A stretch of DNA of 64,000 bases, taken from positions 1,888,136 to 1,952,135 of the forward strand of contig JBJBDC010000001.1 of assembly GCA_047285535.1 (NCBI GenBank), read 5' to 3'. Positions 45,760-60,058 of the stretch are shown here, in pieces. A program made the position numbers and the translations under genes. The first letter of the stretch is position 1. Each line of letters opens with the position of its first letter. Below the pieces are notes generated by a model. It had not been told where the DNA came from and did no database searches. It saw only the letters and a list, made by a program, of their open reading frames with translations. The stretch comes from Synechococcus sp. GTDB taxonomy: Bacteria > Cyanobacteriota > Cyanobacteriia > PCC-6307 > Cyanobiaceae.

Positions 45760-47043
45760 ATGTTCACAAAAGATCAAATCAATGCAGCGTTGTACGATCA
45801 CCCAGACAATCAAGCACCAAAGGTCTTTGACGACTTTGACGATAAGGGAACTCAAATAGGAGGACTAGGGAGGGGAATACTATGTAGAGATCAATCAGAC
45901 ATTTGGCAAAATTATTTCAACCCTTTAGATGATTACAATGTGCTGCCTGCAGCATGGCTTCATAACAGCATTAAAACACCTCATCCCCTCTACAACCTAG
46001 GAGTAACCTTTCACAAGGGTCCTAACCCCAATAAGCCTATTGGCAATTCAGCTGCAGTAGCTTGCATAAATTTTAGCCATCTGGATAATGTTTTTAATAC
46101 AGATGATTTAGCTAATTGGGGTTGGCATGATGGAGTTTTTTATCCACATGATGCTAACTCCTGTGACAAACGTGCAATATGGCTAAGAGATTTTAATGCC
46201 TGGGAAGGCCCTTGCTCATGGCAAGAATTACATAAAGACCCAGTGAAGGCACTAGATAAAATCGGGTCAGGAAGATACTCTGCTGGAAATCCCAGTCTAC
46301 TTTGTAATAATGGAAAAGGATTTGGAGGTGGCGGGACCGGCTACCACACTAATTTAAATCGCGCGGATGCGAGTAAAAGTCCCAACGCAAATCAAAACGA
46401 CTCTCTTTATGGAAAGGTTAATAATGTCGATTTTTATGATCAGAAAGATTGCGTCTGCTATTTCAAGATGGACCACAAGAATTTAAATCCCAATTGGATG
46501 ATGAAAAGTGGATTAGATGATTGGTCGCCTTTCATCATAGAAGTCAACAAAGCCGCCAATAACAAGTTCCATGGTCAATGCTCAATGCACGACGCGCTGG
46601 ATTCATTAGGCTGGGTAAATGATATTAGAGCAATGATTAGTATTCAAAACGCATTTTGGTGGCTCAGCGATAAATTTAATGGAAACCCAAAGAGTGGTGG
46701 TGGCATGTGGTATCCAAGAACTTACGAAAGTGCTTTTCAATGGGAAGGATGGAACGAAATCCCAATGGACAAACAACAGATGCTTGATATCAACAATTGG
46801 GACGGGCTCGCAGTTATGCTGCCAATTCCCAAAGAAGCAGATGCAACAAAAGGCATCACATATGATGATTTAAATGAAACATATGAAAAAGCCCTAATAC
46901 GCGAAAGCTGCCAGAAACACAATGATATTCCAAGCCTAAAGGGCATTGCGGACAAAGGCATCGCCATTATTCAACAGACCCTTACCGATGAACTCATGTT
47001 TACAAGAAAGTGCATTGAAGTTAGAACATTGGCAGAACTTTGA
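45760..47043 (+). CDS. Hypothetical protein (427 aa, AT-rich, W/C/N-rich)
   Basis: Long uninterrupted ORF in AT-rich DNA; no family recognised. Confidence 0.75.
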   Translation: MFTKDQINAALYDHPDNQAPKVFDDFDDKGTQIGGLGRGILCRDQSDIWQNYFNPLDDYNVLPAAWLHNSIKTPHPLYNLGVTFHKGPNPNKPIGNSAAVACINFSHLDNVFNTDDLANWGWHDGVFYPHDANSCDKRAIWLRDFNAWEGPCSWQELHKDPVKALDKIGSGRYSAGNPSLLCNNGKGFGGGGTGYHTNLNRADASKSPNANQNDSLYGKVNNVDFYDQKDCVCYFKMDHKNLNPNWMMKSGLDDWSPFIIEVNKAANNKFHGQCSMHDALDSLGWVNDIRAMISIQNAFWWLSDKFNGNPKSGGGMWYPRTYESAFQWEGWNEIPMDKQQMLDINNWDGLAVMLPIPKEADATKGITYDDLNETYEKALIRESCQKHNDIPSLKGIADKGIAIIQQTLTDELMFTRKCIEVRTLAEL

Positions 47044-47571: not shown

Positions 47572-47965
47572 TACCATTAGTTGAGCCGGCTGACCTGGAG
47601 ATCATCAATAGTCTCGATCAAAAATCGTAAATTCGACAAGAACACAGCTCATACGAACAGTTCAACTTCCAGTTTTTACAGAAGCCAGAAATGAGAAAAA
47701 GGGAGCATCATTCCCTTTAAAGAGCAGTGAATTCGAAACAGCTATCACCAGTCAAAACGGCTTAACCCCCTAGTGGAGTGTGATGAGCGACAGCCAAATT
47801 GGCAGAGGCTTAAATATATAGATATCGGAACCGTGAACCATGACTAAGGTTGGAGCAGGATCTGCTTAAAACAATGCCATCAAAGCGATCTGATCTAGGG
47901 CCAACTGCGGAGGGTCTGCAGTAAGCCAGACCATAGTGATCCATCCAGAGACAAGAGACATCAAA

Positions 47966-48739: not shown

Positions 48740-49240
48740 CTGGCAAACCTGTTCTGTGGCTCAGGATCATCAATGAAGACGATTGCCAGGTTACGACACT
48801 TTATTCAGAACTTCACCTTGCTGATCAAGCGGATTGGTCACGATGAGAACAGAATCTTTGCGGCTTGTTGATGGTGTAGACGTCACAATGAACGCTCATA
48901 TCAGTGATGGAACCTAGTAGGAGCTTATTGCCTAGTTAATTCCTTTCAATTCCGTTGAACAGTTGGTGATCGGACCTGGTAATCCTGGCTCATTTTGGAC
49001 ATGGAGTCACCAGAAACCATGCCATCAAAACAATCCAAAACCTGGTGTGCAGTTAAGTCTTCGTGGTTCGCGGAATGGGAGGTCTAAGTCTTTAGCAAGC
49101 CAATCAATGCCCCAGCAGTCTCAAGCCTGACCTGCAACTGCGGCCGCCGTTGCCCTTGAAACAGTTGCTCGTTGGCGCGGAGGTTGTGACGTTGATGGCC
49201 GCAGCGGGGAACTCTGAGAAGGAGGCCAAGTGCAGTATCG

Positions 49241-50215
49241 ATGCAGAGCACAGCAAGCGCGCCAGGACTGATCCAGCGCTACCGGGAGGAACTACAGGTA
49301 CGCCACTACGCCCGCCGAACGATTTCCACCTATGTGCAGTGGCTGCGTCGCTTTCTGCGATTTCATGAAATGCGCCATCCACGCGAGATGGGGGAGGCGG
49401 AGATCAATGCATTCCTGAGCCATCTGGCGACGAAGGAGAATGTGAGCGCCTCCACCCAGAACCAGGCCCTTGCTGCTTTGCTGTTTCTCTACCGACAGGT
49501 TCTGAACAGTGATGTGGGACGTCTGGAGGGCGTGATCAGAGCCCGAAGGCGCCAACGCCTCCCCGTAGTACTCACAGTGGGGGAGGTGCGCGCTGTTCTG
49601 AGCCATCTCAAAGGAACGGAGGCCCTCGTATCCCAAATGTTGTATGGCAGTGGCTTACGGCTCATGGAAGCACTGCGGTTGCGAATCAAGGATGTGGATC
49701 TGCAGCAACGCTGCATCACGGTGCATTCAGGCAAGGGAGACAAGGACCGCCGCACCGTGCTGCCGACCCGCCTGGTCGAGCCCTTGAAACAGCACCTGCA
49801 AGCCGTGAAACGCCTTCACCAGTCTGATCTCGCGGCTGGTTGGGGGGCCGTTGAGCTACCGCATGCTCTGGACAGGAAATACCCAAATGCACCCAAAGAA
49901 TGGAGCTGGCAATGGCTGTTTCCACAAAGCCACCGCTGGCGGAATCCACGACAGAACAACGAAGGTCGGCACCATCTCGATGCCAGCATTGTTCAACGCG
50001 CCGTGCGAAATGCTGTTCAGGCAGCTGGTGTCAACAAACCAGCCACATGCCATACCTTCCGCCATTCATTCGCCACACACTTGCTGGAGCAGGGCTCTGA
50101 CATCCGCATGATTCAGGAGCTCCTTGGTCACAGTGATGTGAAGACCACGATGATCTACACCCATGTGTTGAACCGAGGGCCCTCAGGGGTGCGCAGCCCC
50201 GCCGACCTACTTTGA
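49241..50215 (+). CDS. intI: Integron integrase (tyrosine recombinase)
   Basis: [46 protein letters not shown], IntI-specific insert [45 protein letters not shown]. Confidence 0.97.
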
Positions 50216-50224
50216 TGCCAAGAA

Positions 50225-50383
50225 TGTTATGCAGACTGCATAACAAAAAACAGCAAAATAGAAATCCGCCGAAATCATTGCTAAAACTTGACTATTGATT
50301 TAGAGGTGTCGAGCTATTGGCAGCTTATGGAGAAAAAACTTATCTGCTAGTAGCTTATGCGGACCGCCGAAACACTGTTAGGT
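50225..50383 (+). promoter_or_regulatory. Putative attI region
   Basis: Perfect palindrome TGTTATGCAG-A-CTGCATAACA (50225-50245), related TTATGCGGACCGC (50355-50367), and core GTTAGGT (50377-50383) complementary to the R'' of the next attC. Confidence 0.75.
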
Positions 50384-53796: not shown

Positions 53797-54480
53797 ATGC
53801 GCTCCCATTACTTGAAGCATGTCCCGTTTGAAGGCCTGGGAAGTATTGAGCACTGGTTCCAAAGCAAGGGTTACGCCATATCAAGACCGAATGGTTTCAT
53901 TCGCAGCTTCTCCCTGCCCTTGAAGACGTTGATCTACTTGTTGTGGTGGGTGAGCGGATGTCAGTTAACGATGAAACAGACCATCCATGGCATGCCAAAG
54001 AGAAGGAATTCATCAGACGTGCCATTGAGGCCGGGAAGCCCGTTCTTGGAATTTGTTTGGGTGCTCAACTCATTGCTGATGCGAAGGGAGCCATCGTTGT
54101 CTCCAATTCAACAAAAGAAATTGGCTGGTTTCCTGTTGAATCCGTTTCTTCAGACCATGCGTCTGTCTTTCAATTTCCAGACGTCACAGAAGTCTTCCAT
54201 TGGCATGGCGGAACCTTTGACCTGCCTGAAGGAGCTGCTCAAATCGCCAGAAGCAAGGGTTGTGAAAATCAGACTTTTCCACTCGGCAGCAATGTGATTT
54301 TGGCTTGCAATTCCACTTGGAAACAACCCCGAAATCTACAACAGCGATTGTCGACCATTGCAGAGAGGAACGCGTGTAAGAGAAATAGATCCAATCAGAA
54401 GCGGTGATCCTTTCTGCTCCCGAAGCACGCTATTCGCCCATCAACGCTTTAATGGCAAACATCCTTGGCCATAAATGCAG
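53797..54480 (+). pseudogene. Frameshifted type 1 glutamine amidotransferase
   Basis: HVPFEGLGSI in one frame and MSVNDE..LGICLGAQLIA..EIGWFPV..FHWHG.TF in another; a further shift near the QFHLE region. Confidence 0.85.
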
Positions 54481-55479: not shown

Positions 55480-56043
55480 ATGGTAGATCCCAACGATAGA
55501 GCATCTGAAGCTCCTATCTCCGTGATCGTTGATAGGAATGTGTTACCAGGAAAGACAAAAGAATTCGAAGAGTACGTACAAAAGATTATTGAAGCCTCAA
55601 GTCGCTTTCCAGGGTATATTGGAACTGACGTCATTAATCCTGATAGAGAAAATAGATATATTGTAGTTTTTCGTTTTGCGTCAAAAGAACAACTTGAGAC
55701 TTGGACCTCATCACAAGAGAGAGCTTACTGGATTCATAAAATCGATCGAGTGATAGAACAACCTACCAAGCTAGTTTCTCTTACGGGCCTAGAAACTTGG
55801 TTTGTCCTATCCAAATCCAATAGATTTTATCCACCCCCGAAGCACAAAATGGCAGTTGTTGTGTATCTGGCAATCTCTTTAACTTTAACTGTTTTTGATT
55901 TCTTCTTTGGTGGCTACTTTGCCTCAATACCCATTCCACTGAAATTTTGGGCGACCAGCCCATTTATTGTTATCATAATGACCTATCTATCCATGCCAAT
56001 CCTGACGAAAGCGTTTAAAAAATTCCTATTTTACCAAAGCTAA
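55480..56043 (+). CDS. ABM-domain membrane protein
   Basis: SRFPGYIG, VFRFAS, W..S.ER, TGLETWF, PPKHKMAVV plus 2 TM. Confidence 0.85.
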   Translation: MVDPNDRASEAPISVIVDRNVLPGKTKEFEEYVQKIIEASSRFPGYIGTDVINPDRENRYIVVFRFASKEQLETWTSSQERAYWIHKIDRVIEQPTKLVSLTGLETWFVLSKSNRFYPPPKHKMAVVVYLAISLTLTVFDFFFGGYFASIPIPLKFWATSPFIVIIMTYLSMPILTKAFKKFLFYQS

Positions 56044-56394
56044 TGTTCGCTTAAGAAAAAATATGGATTGTTGCGGCTACAGAATTGCTGGTCGTATTTC
56101 TACGATTTAATACAGTGGGCCGGGGCAATCTCTGGCTTTGATCGAAAGATTTGAGCCGCTACTGGCCTCAGATGTTAGGCATGGTTTGACGGTTTGATGT
56201 TGCCTGAGCCAGGGAATTGGACTCTGCAAAACAGAGCGTTTCAAGAATGCAAGCCCAGGACATTGCCAACCCCTGGGTGAACCCGGGCCTGCATTAATCA
56301 CATCCTGCATCGCCCTTGAATTCAATCCACAAGCCAGCTTGCGGCTGCCCAAAGTTTTGGCTACCGAAAGCTTGTCAGCTTGCAGCATTCGCCT

Positions 56395-57990
56395 ATGGCC
56401 GAAGTGATGTTGCTAACGCTGCTGGTCGCCCTGCCCCTCACCCTGGCGCTATCGGCCCTGATTGCCTGGCGCTACAGGAACACCGTGCGCAAGCTGATGC
56501 GGCTTGCCCCATCCCCAAACGACAGCGACAGCCCAGTTGTAGTCAAATCGGAGCTGGAAGCCCTAGCCATGGCGCCGGCCGATCGACCAGTGCGGCTGTC
56601 AGCATCGCTGTCTGCAAGAGAACGGCAGCTGAACCTGAGCCTTGCTCTCTGCAGTGTGCTGATTAGCACCACCGGGGCCTGGCTTTATCTCCTGGTGCAT
56701 CAGCAGGAGATCGGTGGCATCACCCCCCTACGACTGCTGCTGGTGAGCCTGGTGTGGTGCAGCCCGGGGCTGGTGCTCCAGGCCTTGGTGCTGCGCTGGC
56801 CCCTGTCGCGACAGTTGCCCGTGCTGCTGGGCTGGGGCACTGCCCTGGTACTGCTGCTGGCGGCGATGAGCTCCGGGGGCTTCTCTGTCGCATCCCTGAG
56901 CTTCGTAGTCGTGCACATCCTGCTGCCGCTAGTGGTGCTTGGGCTGCTCTTTGGTGTGCCGGTTCTGCGAGCCATCGCCCCCTATCTATTTCCTGTGGTG
57001 GCCGCTCTCTGCCTAGCGGTGAACGCGGCCTTCGATGCCCTGGCAGCGCTGGTGGAGCAAGAATCAGCCTGGATCGGCTCTGTGTTGCCGGTCAGCGGCG
57101 CAATGGGGCTGATCCTGCTCGTGGCGCTGGTGGCCTTGTTGGCGACCTGCCTACCTGCCCATTCTCTGGTCAAGGTGCTGGGCGGGCTCTACCGCCGCCA
57201 GGTCTTCTCTGATCTCTCCTATCTGTTTGGTGCCAGCTGGCTGCTGGTGTTGACTCTGGAACTGATACCGACCATCAGAGCAGCCGGAGCAGGCCTGGCT
57301 TCCCTTCTGCCATTGCTGGCTTGGCTGTGGATTCCCCTGCTATTCCGCTGGCTGCCACGGCTGATGCCGCCGCCGCCCCCCTCCTGCAGGCCCCCGCGAC
57401 TGCTGGTGTTGCGGGTATTCCGGCGAGGCGGGCCGATGGCCTGGCTCTTCGACCATGTGGTGCAGCGCTGGCGCTTGATCGGACCGGTACTGTTGATCAC
57501 CGCCGCCGACCTGGCCTCGCGAACCATTGAGCCCCACGAGTTGGTGGCCTTCGTGGAGGGCCGCTTGCACAATCGCTACATCAGCACTGCGACCCAGCTC
57601 CAGACTCAGCTGGACCAGATCCAGGACCAACCCGATCACGATGGTCGCTGGCGTGTGCATGAATTCTGTTGCTACGCCAACAGCTGGAAACAAAGCCTGG
57701 ATGCTCTGTTGAGTCGATCCGATGTGGTTCTGATGGATCTTCGCGGATTTAGCAGCCGCAATGCCGGCTGCCGCCATGAGTTGCGCCGTATCGGCCAGAG
57801 CAACCATCTACGAGCTGCTGTGCTGTTAATGGATCGCCACACCGATCAAACTGCGGCCCAGGAAGCGCTTGGTGCCCAACCTGCCGCTGCCATCACCTGG
57901 CAACCAGCCGAGCAGCGACGCATCCCCGCGAGTACTGCCGTGCTTGAGCCGCTGCTGCAGCCCTTCCAATCGCCATCGAGACATCTCTAA
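56395..57990 (+). CDS. Polytopic membrane protein with C-terminal TIR-like alpha/beta domain
   Basis: About 9-10 hydrophobic helices, then LLVLRVF...WKQSLDALLSRSDVVLMDLRGFS..NAGCRHEL. Confidence 0.7.
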   Translation: MAEVMLLTLLVALPLTLALSALIAWRYRNTVRKLMRLAPSPNDSDSPVVVKSELEALAMAPADRPVRLSASLSARERQLNLSLALCSVLISTTGAWLYLLVHQQEIGGITPLRLLLVSLVWCSPGLVLQALVLRWPLSRQLPVLLGWGTALVLLLAAMSSGGFSVASLSFVVVHILLPLVVLGLLFGVPVLRAIAPYLFPVVAALCLAVNAAFDALAALVEQESAWIGSVLPVSGAMGLILLVALVALLATCLPAHSLVKVLGGLYRRQVFSDLSYLFGASWLLVLTLELIPTIRAAGAGLASLLPLLAWLWIPLLFRWLPRLMPPPPPSCRPPRLLVLRVFRRGGPMAWLFDHVVQRWRLIGPVLLITAADLASRTIEPHELVAFVEGRLHNRYISTATQLQTQLDQIQDQPDHDGRWRVHEFCCYANSWKQSLDALLSRSDVVLMDLRGFSSRNAGCRHELRRIGQSNHLRAAVLLMDRHTDQTAAQEALGAQPAAAITWQPAEQRRIPASTAVLEPLLQPFQSPSRHL

Positions 57991-57997
57991 ACCCACC

Positions 57998-58462
57998 ATG
58001 ACCATGTTGGATTCCGACGCCTATCTGCACGACCGCCTCAACCAGCAACTGTCCTGGCTCAGCAAGGCCAGCCGCGGCAACAAAAGAAACTTTCTTCAGT
58101 TGCGAATCCTTGAGGTGCTGCTGGGCATCGGCATCACGATCTTCAGCCCTTTCGCAATGCAATGGGGCTGGAGGGGGGCACTGGTGCTGTCGCTAGCGGG
58201 AGGTGGCATCGCCGTGTGCGGTTCTCTGCTGGCGTTGAATCATCATCAAGAAAACTGGCTGCGCTACCGCGGCCTGGCCGAAGCGCTCAAGCGCCAAAAA
58301 TATCTCTTTCTGACAGGAACCTGCCCCTATGACGACGCCTCCACAGCGTTCCCGCGCCTGGTGTCGACCTGCGAATCTCTACTGAGTGTTGAAAACAACC
58401 AGTGGAGCCAGGAGATGAGCAAGCTGTCTGAGGCGAAGGTCGCCGGAACACGGAACAGCTGA
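57998..58462 (+). CDS. SLATT/DUF4231 family 2TM protein
   Basis: YL.DRL..QL.W...AS..NKR.F, two TM helices, ENWLRYR..AEALKRQKYLF...PY, E.LLS.EN..W; starts 7 bp after the upstream stop. Confidence 0.85.
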   Translation: MTMLDSDAYLHDRLNQQLSWLSKASRGNKRNFLQLRILEVLLGIGITIFSPFAMQWGWRGALVLSLAGGGIAVCGSLLALNHHQENWLRYRGLAEALKRQKYLFLTGTCPYDDASTAFPRLVSTCESLLSVENNQWSQEMSKLSEAKVAGTRNS

Positions 58463-58709
58463 ACCCAAACAACGACAAAACACTTGAAGGCCTGAGACCG
58501 TGGTACCGAGTCTCCCAGCACCCCTCACCTTCGGAGGCGTTGAAGTGATTCCAGAAGGAGTGGACGCAGGTGAGAGTCTCACTTCGGCGATCAGTGCCAC
58601 TGATCAATGACACTGAGGAAGATCCACTCAAACAACAACCACTGCCATGCACCACAATGGCTGGAGTCATTCAAAAGCCTTTCTTCATTCAAGAAGCGAT
58701 AAAGAGATT

Positions 58710-58796
58710 GTCCAACTACAGCTTGCACCCGACCCGGCATCAAGTTGAGGTATGCCGCTGAAGTTGCATGCGGAAGTGGGGAGATGAGTTTTAGGC
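58710..58796 (+). repeat. Degenerate attC-like site
   Basis: GTCCAAC (RYYYAAC), TTGCACCCGAC, CGGCAT/ATGCCG inverted repeat, ending TTTAGGC. Confidence 0.45.
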
Positions 58797-58891
58797 ATAC
58801 ATAATCTCAAACTAAAATACATCAACTTGAGTAAACTTAGAGCTGGCCAAACCCTAATAGAGCGGAGATCAATTCAGCTAAGAACAACATC

Positions 58892-60058
58892 ATGACGCAC
58901 TCATCAGCCCACGCGGCCCCTTTGGATATAGCAATTATCGGTGCAGGGCCCGGCGGACTCAGTGCAGCTCACGCATTGGCAAACCGAGGTTTTTCTGTAG
59001 GCATTTTTGACCGAGCCCAAATTCTGCGCCCGATTGGAGCAGCTCTTGGACTTGCCGAACAGGGATATGCTGCTCTCAATGCAATTAGTCCTGATCTTTC
59101 TAAGCAAGTTCAGTCCAAAGCCATCAATCCCAGACAACAACTTCTCATGCGGCCAAATAGTGAGGTCTTGTTCGCAGATGAATCGCCGATGGCAGGGACA
59201 AGTTTCACCTGGCTGGGATGGTTTAATTTGCAAGCTTGTCTTTGTGAAGCTCTTCCCAACTCAGTTCAGTTAAACCTTAACCACAGTCTTACCGAATTCA
59301 TTTCTGATCGACTTGACACACCCATCTGTCTCAAATTTCGGGATCAAGCTGACCAATTTGCTCGAATTTTGATAGGAGCCGATGGCTATCGCTCAGTGGT
59401 CAGAAACAAAACAGTTGGAGATGGTCCTCCTGTGTACACAGGCACGATGACTTGGCGAGGCACTCTGCCCAGAGAAAAACTAGTTCCTCTTGAAGAACCT
59501 TTCATCGAAGGAGCTGGTTTTCAGCTGGTTGTAGGAGAACAAAAGAATTTTTGGATAATGGATGCTGGTGCCAATCAAATAGCCTGGGGTGGCACTGCAC
59601 CTCAAGCCAGCTCAGAGAAAAGTGAATCTGCTGTCAATACTGCACTTCATGTCTTTGAGGATTGGCCTGCCATTGTGCAAAAGATGATTCTTACGACAGA
59701 TCCTTTAAGCATCATTGAGACAGGTGTATTCGATCGAAAACCCGTGTCTCAATGGGGAGATGGTCAACGCATAACCCTTTTAGGTGATGCTGCCCATCCG
59801 ATTCGTCCATCCTTGGGTCTAGGAACAACTCTCGCTTTACAAGATGCAGTGACTCTTGCCGAAGTGCTTGAGGCAATAACACCTACAGACATTCCATCTG
59901 TTTCAGCTGCTCTCTCGCGGTACGAACAAAAGAGAATTGAGATCACAACACCCTTGCAGAAAAAAGCCTCTGAACAGGGGTTAGCGTCCCATGCTGACGA
60001 TCAAGCGGATCGGCTAAAAATAGGTTTTGAGGCCGCTTTAGCGAGTCGAAAAAAATAA
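58892..60058 (+). CDS. FAD-dependent monooxygenase
   Basis: IIGAGPGGL, IGADG, LLGDAAH, G..LALQDA. Confidence 0.9.
   Translation: MTHSSAHAAPLDIAIIGAGPGGLSAAHALANRGFSVGIFDRAQILRPIGAALGLAEQGYAALNAISPDLSKQVQSKAINPRQQLLMRPNSEVLFADESPMAGTSFTWLGWFNLQACLCEALPNSVQLNLNHSLTEFISDRLDTPICLKFRDQADQFARILIGADGYRSVVRNKTVGDGPPVYTGTMTWRGTLPREKLVPLEEPFIEGAGFQLVVGEQKNFWIMDAGANQIAWGGTAPQASSEKSESAVNTALHVFEDWPAIVQKMILTTDPLSIIETGVFDRKPVSQWGDGQRITLLGDAAHPIRPSLGLGTTLALQDAVTLAEVLEAITPTDIPSVSAALSRYEQKRIEITTPLQKKASEQGLASHADDQADRLKIGFEAALASRKK

Follow-up and report, generated by a model that had tools for sequence, protein, structure and literature searches.

Two adjacent genes of a Synechococcus sp. (GenBank assembly GCA_047285535.1), referred to here as gene 1 and gene 2, make up a single mobile integron cassette, occupying approximately positions 56175 to 58796 of the 64,000-nucleotide stretch of DNA that was analyzed (contig JBJBDC010000001.1, positions 1,888,136 to 1,952,135 of the forward strand; hereafter, the window, whose numbering is used throughout). 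Gene 1 specifies a membrane protein of an unnamed family with a Rossmann-like C-terminal domain, and gene 2 specifies a SLATT protein. The pair looks like a new relative of the known anti-phage signaling systems. Most likely, it is a self-contained, horizontally mobile membrane module that would act in anti-phage defense through abortive infection, a role that we infer.

Boundaries of the cassette

Gene 1 and gene 2 lie on the same strand, with 7 bp between the stop codon of the former and the ATG of the latter. This tight coupling had been pointed out in a preliminary description of the same DNA, as had the elevated GC content of the pair, and both features are evident from the coordinates and base composition. 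The pair has a GC content of 0.618 vs. 0.535 for the whole window, and values in 400-nt windows range from 0.58 to 0.655 across 56200 to 58400 vs. 0.39 to 0.48 on both sides. The 531 residues of the gene 1 product are counted from the ATG at 56395, from which 50 homologues align; an alternative TTG start is present at 56380.

The cassette boundaries were derived solely from comparison with other copies, which are found in loci designated here by the letter L and a number. The window matches L001 from 56122 to 58439 with 83% identity, and it matches L002, L003 and L113 from 56174 or 56169 to 58435, within gene 2, with about 78% identity. The left end of this homology falls at a core site of the GTTRRRY type (Table 1), which reads GTTGGGC in L002, L003 and L113; upstream of the core, the window and these three loci are mutually unrelated. 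Homology to the three loci resumes at a shared attC, and the flanks diverge beyond its R' site. In L002, L003 and L113, the attC behind the SLATT gene is well formed (GCCCAAC...CACCCGACCCG...CGGGCGGGTG...GTTAGGC, GTTATAC or GTTCGAT), and its bottom strand folds with z values of −4.45, −3.49 and −2.79, respectively. In the window, the segment that starts with GTCCAAC at position 58710 and runs to the end of CACCCGACCCG can be aligned to this attC; the 3' arm carries mutations, and the stretch folds like shuffled sequences (z of −0.46 to −0.49). A strict scan for the attC consensus (RYYYAAC...GTTRRRY with pairing) between positions 46000 and 64000 returned none. The attC-like remnant noticed earlier at 58710 is a decayed attC, homologous to the well-formed sites of the other copies. 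At least three further sequence contexts contain the cassette. That the two genes belong to one cassette is new relative to the earlier sequence reading.

Two non-coding stretches within the cassette are conserved (Table 1). No sigma-70-like site was found in the leader, and a scan of 56040 to 58900 for promoters and terminators gave nothing exceeding shuffled sequences. The stretch behind the SLATT stop codon folds with −42.2 kcal/mol under RNA parameters, and related sequence is present in L002, L003, L113, L114 and L115; the consensus fold of five sequences contains one compensatory pair.

Table 1. Features of the cassette and of the integron in the window
Feature	Position	Strand	Basis or remark
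Integron integrase gene, intI	49241..50215	+, same strand as cassette open reading frames	TIGR02249; Pfam Phage_integrase and Phage_int_SAM_4
Core site GTTAGGC (GTTRRRY), cassette 5' boundary	56174..56180	+	Left end of DNA homology
Conserved non-coding leader, 220 nt	56175..56394	+	Within 78-83% identical DNA matches to L001, L002, L003 and L113
Gene 1, 531 aa, unnamed family; transmembrane part, residues 1 to ~325; cytoplasmic Rossmann-like part, ~330 to 531 (predicted)	56395..57990	+	Models, alignments and family searches
Gene 2, SLATT_1/DUF4231 protein, 154 aa	57998..58462	+	Pfam and NCBIfam profiles
Conserved non-coding stretch with hairpin potential, ~110 nt	58489..58598	+	Between SLATT stop codon and attC
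Decayed attC, cassette 3' end: R'' GTCCAAC, L'' CACCCGACCCG, R' GTTTTAGGC with two extra T	58710..58796	+	Alignment to attC of L002, L003 and L113

The gene products

The gene 2 product exceeds the curated cut-offs of the Pfam models DUF4231 (69.4 bits; cut-off, 24.7) and SLATT_1 (36.1 bits; cut-off, 26.3) and of the NCBIfam model SLATT_1 (102.6 bits; cut-off, 41). By inspection of the sequence, two adjacent hydrophobic helices lie at approximately residues 36 to 56 and 60 to 80, and they are kept in 37 aligned relatives. Gene 2 encodes, as had been proposed, a SLATT protein with two predicted transmembrane helices. Because a word-indexed search gave just 50 relatives (43-99% identity), its group appears to be a narrow subfamily. 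When the complex of the two gene products was modeled (alignments A1 and A4; two runs without controls), the ipSAE was 0.00. Among the distant SLATT relatives (25% identity), one (L134:977-1891) adjoins a PycTIR/CAP12-type TIR gene, and another (L135:670-1263) adjoins a ThsB-type TIR gene in what looks like a Thoeris type VII arrangement.

The gene 1 product matched no family in Pfam, NCBIfam or PADLOC. A word-indexed search yielded 336 proteins of its family, and an exhaustive search yielded 1,812 clusters at 50% identity with E≤0.001, or 1,265 with E≤1e-10; members that carry a name from their source are called "hypothetical protein". An AlphaFold2 model of residues 1 to 326 (pLDDT 90.3; pTM 0.85) contains nine long helices of transmembrane length, in agreement with the nine or ten expected from the first inspection, and this predicted membrane domain is a fold without solved structural relatives. 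With the PADLOC-DB v2 models, no family was found for either the gene 1 protein (P0001) or the gene 2 protein (P0002) at E≤1, and five other members of the gene 1 family (P0067, P0110, P0042, P0020 and P0141) gave no match to PADLOC models. To this extent, the earlier view that the architecture lies outside the named systems has held.

The cassette is present in a single copy in the complete genome of 3.03 Mb. Gene 1 was not found in any of the 24 same-genus genomes or any of the 16 other genomes searched.

The C-terminal domain of gene 1

The preliminary description had viewed the C-terminal domain of gene 1 as having a fold like that of TIR domains or nucleoside deoxyribosyltransferases (NDT), with a segment DVVLMD..GCRHEL containing a Glu that is placed as a catalytic one would be. 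This segment is present, and its Glu, E462, is invariant in 115 aligned sequences. Also invariant are L339, R340, F342, W359, D372, W431, D448, R450 and G458; several more Arg residues are conserved in at least 90% of the sequences, and the conserved surface is rich in Arg. The model of residues 322 to 531 (from a 115-row alignment; pLDDT 89.5, pTM 0.86) consists of six beta-alpha units with a helical insert of about 50 residues between strands 2 and 3. Gene 1 contains the motif SDVVLMDLRGFSSRNAGCRHEL, for which the family consensus is VVLMDLRGFxxxNxGCxxELG. Its NAGCRHEL part (consensus NxGCxxELG) comes after the strand at residues 123 to 127 of the domain model, and it includes the invariant G458 and E462. 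Counting strands places the Glu behind the fourth one, which is the position seen in NDT and LOG proteins; in TIR domains, it comes after the third.

Profile searches bear on the proposed fold in part. On the one hand, no TIR or NDT model of Pfam reached its threshold: the TIR profiles (PF01582, PF13676, PF08937, PF10137 and the PADLOC TIR models) did not match P0001 at E≤1, no TIR family was seen at E≤0.1 in 51 gene 1 homologues, and the SLOG, LSDAT and SMODS models of Pfam did not match gene 1 at E≤1. On the other hand, 8 of the 51 homologues gave sub-threshold matches to the NDT model PF05014 (14-18.6 bits vs. a cut-off of 28.8; best E, 0.0021), all of which cover the strand plus GCxxE segment at profile positions 54 to 99. 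At the place of this motif, the NDT genes retrieved from cyanobacterial genomes read ...IVNGxPPDEGVMVELG..., resembling LMDLRGFxxxNxGCxxELG.

In a structural fold comparison, the matches of the domain model included the flavoprotein 1vme (11.1), NmrA (10.5), a heptosyltransferase (10.2), the NDT-like CMP hydrolase MilB (10.2; 138 of 158 residues aligned), the RPS4 TIR domain (9.6; 129 of 141 aligned), Moco-carrier and LOG-type proteins (9.0-9.6) and the IL-1RAcPb TIR domain (9.1). Foldseek returned weak, generic Rossmann matches (PLR and UGDH) from the PDB, with a best E of 6.9e-4 and a TM-score of at most 0.47. A profile search of PDB sequences with alignment A2 gave nothing below E 0.04, and the rows obtained were transmembrane noise; a search of the ESM Atlas with residues 322 to 531 gave no usable match. 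The model is compatible with a TIR/NDT-like fold, and the [N/D]xG[C/T]xxE[L]G motif that comes behind strand 4, together with the Arg-rich surface, resembles the active site of nucleotide N-glycosidases of the NDT/LOG/TIR class. A weak match to SRP54 (E 0.19) was also considered as a possible P-loop. It was rejected, since strand 1 is not followed by a Walker A motif and the match covers only the hydrophobic strand plus an Asp.

Partners of the gene 1 family

Co-occurrence of the two genes was examined in the best 80 of 292 confirmed gene 1 matches, with one genome taken per species. A SLATT relative lies downstream of gene 1 in seven of these loci, which are seven of the eight closest ones (the L004 locus is incomplete, and a contig end truncates L006), and the gap in L001 is again 7 bp. 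The eighth, L007, carries a patatin and a TPR-S gene in place of SLATT. In the reverse direction, among 24 metagenome loci with a SLATT relative, gene 1 is found upstream of SLATT in L112 to L115, and remnants of it are found in L118 and L125. Gene 1 and SLATT are closely linked within the cassette and in the nearest clade; for the SLATT subfamily, however, the association with gene 1 is not an obligate one.

Partners were counted over the 80 loci with hidden Markov models built from Pfam-checked seeds, plus Pfam. Patatin genes are present in 18 loci, TIR genes in 16 and TPR-S genes in 19, and Pfam added TIR-WD40 (L015 and L055), CHAT with TPR-S (L016 and L058), caspase (L033), TIR_2 (L072) and nSTAND1-TPR (L053). 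At least one of SLATT, patatin, TIR, TPR-S, CHAT or caspase occurs within about 4 kb in 40 of the 80 loci. Immediately downstream, and on the same strand, a patatin gene is found in nine loci, a TIR gene in eight (with a 3-bp gap in six), a SLATT gene in seven, a TPR-S gene in two and a caspase gene in one.

Several of these partners resemble known effectors. The TIR partners in L059 (5336-6286), L062, L056, L048, L075 and L066 consist of a TIR domain, one transmembrane helix and a C-terminal domain of about 120 residues, which is probably extracytoplasmic. The patatin partner is CapV-like, matching PADLOC models of CBASS phospholipase effectors at E 6.6e-44, and the N-terminal stretch of the TPR-S protein of L017 matches a PADLOC TIR effector model at E 1.1e-6. 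No CD-NTase (SMODS) was seen among the neighbors scanned. When the partner label was mapped on a tree of 75 family proteins, at least 18 changes were needed, the minimum possible being 7 and the mean of shuffled labels 46.7; this is a quick tree only, for which the careful search is unfinished, and the kin in it are not independent.

Some further observations were made in these loci. The remnant in L118 (226-902) retains a piece of the first transmembrane helix and the C-terminal domain in different frames, and that in L125 (2345-2884) is partial. An mtnA gene (IF-2B family) is upstream in L004, L117 and L125, which suggests a fixed chromosomal site. A DUF3616 gene lies upstream of a family member, which is then followed by TPR-S, in L063 (2634-3734), and another immediately precedes a close SLATT relative in L116 (829-1569), where gene 1 is lacking.

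Other features of the array

The intI product scored 476 bits with NCBIfam TIGR02249 (cut-off, 265), and its gene is located about 6 kb upstream of the pair; intI and the cassette open reading frames are not divergent. More core sites are present at 50377 (GTTAGGT), 60190 (GTTAGGC) and 62957 (GTTAAAT), so that part of the cassette boundaries in the array are marked, and the GC content of the cassettes varies widely across the array, from 0.39 to 0.65. A glutamine-amidotransferase-like cassette at 53797-54407 looks frameshifted: it comprises two overlapping plus-strand reading frames (53797-54297 and 53943-54407), and the Pfam GATase model matches only the second, starting at profile position 59. 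Repeated intergenic elements occur both in and before the array (60224-60349/63785-63910 and 63029-63133/63889-63993; also 47823-47863 and 48956-49036), with identities of 82% (83 nt) and 74% (105 nt). None of them shows an attC-like consensus or a match in Rfam. For the whole window, an Rfam search gave no match, and no tRNA was found by a tRNA scan.

Discussion

It is plausible that the pair is a SLATT-effector conflict system. We give an even chance to its being a conflict module whose gene 1 product would sense and activate and whose SLATT protein would execute. The order of events would be as follows: gene 1 would sense a membrane-proximal event; its Rossmann-like domain would make, or bind and relay, a nucleotide-derived signal; and this signal would activate the co-encoded SLATT protein, so that the inner membrane would be permeabilized. 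In other lineages, the gene 1 core is paired with a TIR-transmembrane protein, a CapV-like patatin, a TPR-S protein or a caspase in the place of SLATT. A conserved core combined with a variable downstream slot for classic defense effectors is typical of modular immune systems, as are cassette mobility and patchy presence. The mechanism put forward in the preliminary description, a membrane sensor/NADase acting through a pore-forming effector, is in part favored by these data: the two genes form one unit, a shared cassette, one of them encodes a SLATT protein, and the family has conflict-type neighbors; however, the pairing is not obligate. Within the conflict-module reading, a role of gene 1 in generating the signal, as TIR proteins do, is rather unlikely. 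We are similarly doubtful of the larger proposal that the gene 1 family represents nucleotide N-glycosidases of a new, membrane-embedded class which, as functional analogues of the TIR generators, would detect phage attack at the inner membrane, make a nucleotide-derived second messenger for swappable effectors and form the core of a widespread defense system that is also spread by an integron cassette.

A number of observations weigh against the conflict-module reading. With regard to the domain itself, P0001 had no NDT or TIR match at E≤1, and in hhalign the C-terminal domain alignment gave a probability below 1% with TIR alignments and a small NDT alignment (27 sequences; Neff 1.7), these alignments being of poor quality. 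With regard to the sampling, close kin among the 80 loci are not independent. With regard to the pairing, SLATT occurs without gene 1 in 8 of the 12 metagenome loci having at least 1.5 kb of upstream sequence (L116, L117, L119, L121, L124, L126, L130 and L131), where its neighbors are DUF3616, mtnA and others, and in the Cyanobium-like L118 and L125, gene 1 has decayed while SLATT persists. This persistence also matters for the possibility that the cassette is an addiction (toxin-antitoxin-like) module stabilizing the integron array, with SLATT as the toxin and gene 1 as its constant inhibitor, since it would be unexpected for an unopposed toxin. Toxin-antitoxin cassettes are common in chromosomal integrons, and two genes with a 7-bp gap in one cassette would fit such a module, as would the decayed attC of the window, by which the cassette is fixed in place. 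However, a nine-helix protein of 531 residues with an enzyme-like domain is unlike the known antitoxins, and the partner genes found elsewhere are typical defense effectors. We consider this alternative highly improbable.

Gene 1 also occurs alone, in about 21 of the 80 loci. In this Hydrogenophaga-type form, synteny is conserved in a housekeeping context: gene 1 is situated between thiL and pgpA/pncC, and these genes and a recombinase gene lie on the other strand. It resembles a resident cellular gene more than part of a defense island. The co-occurrence proposed earlier therefore holds for the closest loci, but not as an obligate association. The solo form raises the question of whether the gene 1 family might have an everyday role in the cell membrane, such as that of a channel or transporter regulated by nucleotides or a role in envelope homeostasis, its conflict-type neighbors being there by chance or through hitch-hiking in islands. 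Fusions within the family would be in line with this: the K+ channel pore Ion_trans_2 replaces the N-terminal part in P0095, an RDD domain is attached at the C-terminus in P0141, and TPR arrays are attached at the C- or N-terminus in P0264 and P0260. So would the other half of the 80 loci, in which no recognized conflict gene is nearby. What makes such a function improbable, in our opinion, is that genes for TIR, patatin, SLATT, TPR-S, CHAT and caspase proteins are found repeatedly across distant branches, closely spaced and on the same strand, that gene 1 is carried on an integron cassette, and that it was not found in any of the 24 congeners.

In Rhodocyclales and Thiobacillus, family members have canonical TIR genes 3 bp downstream (six loci) or nearby, which leaves room for gene 1 as a receiver rather than a maker of the signal. 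Gene 1 would then be a membrane effector or co-effector whose C-terminal domain binds a TIR-made nucleotide and whose nine helices damage or gate the membrane, and the cassette would be an orphan or trans-dependent fragment consisting of two effectors without a generator. TIR-like/TPR-S and patatin genes are present in such loci too, MilB is among the best small-domain fold matches, and gene 1 can occur alone, all of which would suit a receiver. In addition, a recent preprint (bioRxiv 10.64898/2025.12.03.692087) assigns effectors that carry an NDT-like CMP-hydrolase domain with TPR, and that co-occur with SLATT effectors, to Thoeris type VIII. The genome of the window, on the contrary, gave no match to the TIR_2, ThsB_TIR, TIR or SMODS profiles, and no CD-NTase (SMODS, PF18144) was found in it at E≤0.01. 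Because TIR and SMODS matches are lacking from the genome, the cassette, if functional, would act alone. The mobile cassette contains these two genes only, and the invariant Glu, Asp and Arg residues suggest catalysis as much as binding. In our estimate, a receiver role is unlikely.

The conflict module proposed here can be compared with several known systems. According to the same preprint, the combination of TIR and SLATT proteins (ThsB plus ThsH) constitutes Thoeris type VII, for which the signal is canonical cyclic ADP-ribose (bioRxiv 10.64898/2025.12.03.692087). Our pair is similar in being a two-gene operon with a SLATT protein, presumably the two-helix membrane effector, specified by the second gene, and with an alpha/beta domain that resembles the TIR/NDT class and has a conserved Glu specified by the first. 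It differs in that gene 1 has no TIR match in Pfam, NCBIfam or PADLOC, its domain is anchored to a nine-helix membrane part, its Glu follows the fourth strand, and its SLATT partner is of the SLATT_1/DUF4231 type. Membership in Thoeris, of any type, would entail a ThsB-type TIR gene in the operon; no TIR profile matched in the cassette or elsewhere in the genome. SLATT has also been described as required for the toxicity of DRT10 (bioRxiv 10.64898/2026.04.29.721553).

The SLOG/SMODS-SLATT systems (Burroughs et al. 2015, as quoted in PMC7159879) share with the pair a SLATT protein together with a Rossmannoid nucleotide-handling domain, as well as the predicted logic by which a nucleotide signal would open a pore of two transmembrane helices. 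Gene 1 is unlike them in lacking SLOG, LSDAT and SMODS matches, as noted above. To our knowledge, a membrane-anchored Rossmannoid domain is not part of the descriptions of these systems. Compared with NDT/CMP-hydrolase proteins (PF05014; MilB, PDB 4ohr), the gene 1 domain differs in its weak or absent profile matches and in having the helical insert, a sixth strand and a fused membrane domain. The same effector repertoire as in CBASS with CapV-like patatin or two-helix effectors (patatin, TIR and two-helix membrane proteins) is found beside family members, but the CD-NTase that CBASS would entail was detected neither in the genome nor among the neighbors scanned.

As for the genetic setting, the phage-defense integron cassettes described in a further preprint (bioRxiv 10.1101/2024.07.02.601719) are likewise compact, defense-like modules, delimited by an attC and by a core of the GTTRRRY type and located in an array that follows intI. 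The present example is different in that it is a two-gene cassette of 2.6 kb in the chromosomal integron of a picocyanobacterium, with a decayed attC and a putative role in defense. SLATT effectors and nucleotide-signaling defense are known already; the core formed by the nine helices and the Rossmannoid domain has no entry in Pfam, NCBIfam or PADLOC v2. We found no literature linking integrons with DUF4231, and the gene 1 family may already figure in the literature on TPR-S or Thoeris.

Even if the pair is not defensive, it points to a widespread family of membrane proteins with an unsolved fold and an enzyme-like domain. With two genes and one invariant Glu, it offers a simple system in which to study SLATT activation without a TIR protein, a CD-NTase or a reverse transcriptase. 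If the pair is defensive, it would: add to nucleotide-signaling immunity a family of 1,812 clusters for which Pfam, NCBIfam and PADLOC have no model; provide a rare worked example of a two-gene defense cassette in a cyanobacterial chromosomal integron, with boundaries exact to the base; and give nucleotide-signaling systems a sensor seated in the membrane, at the site of phage entry.

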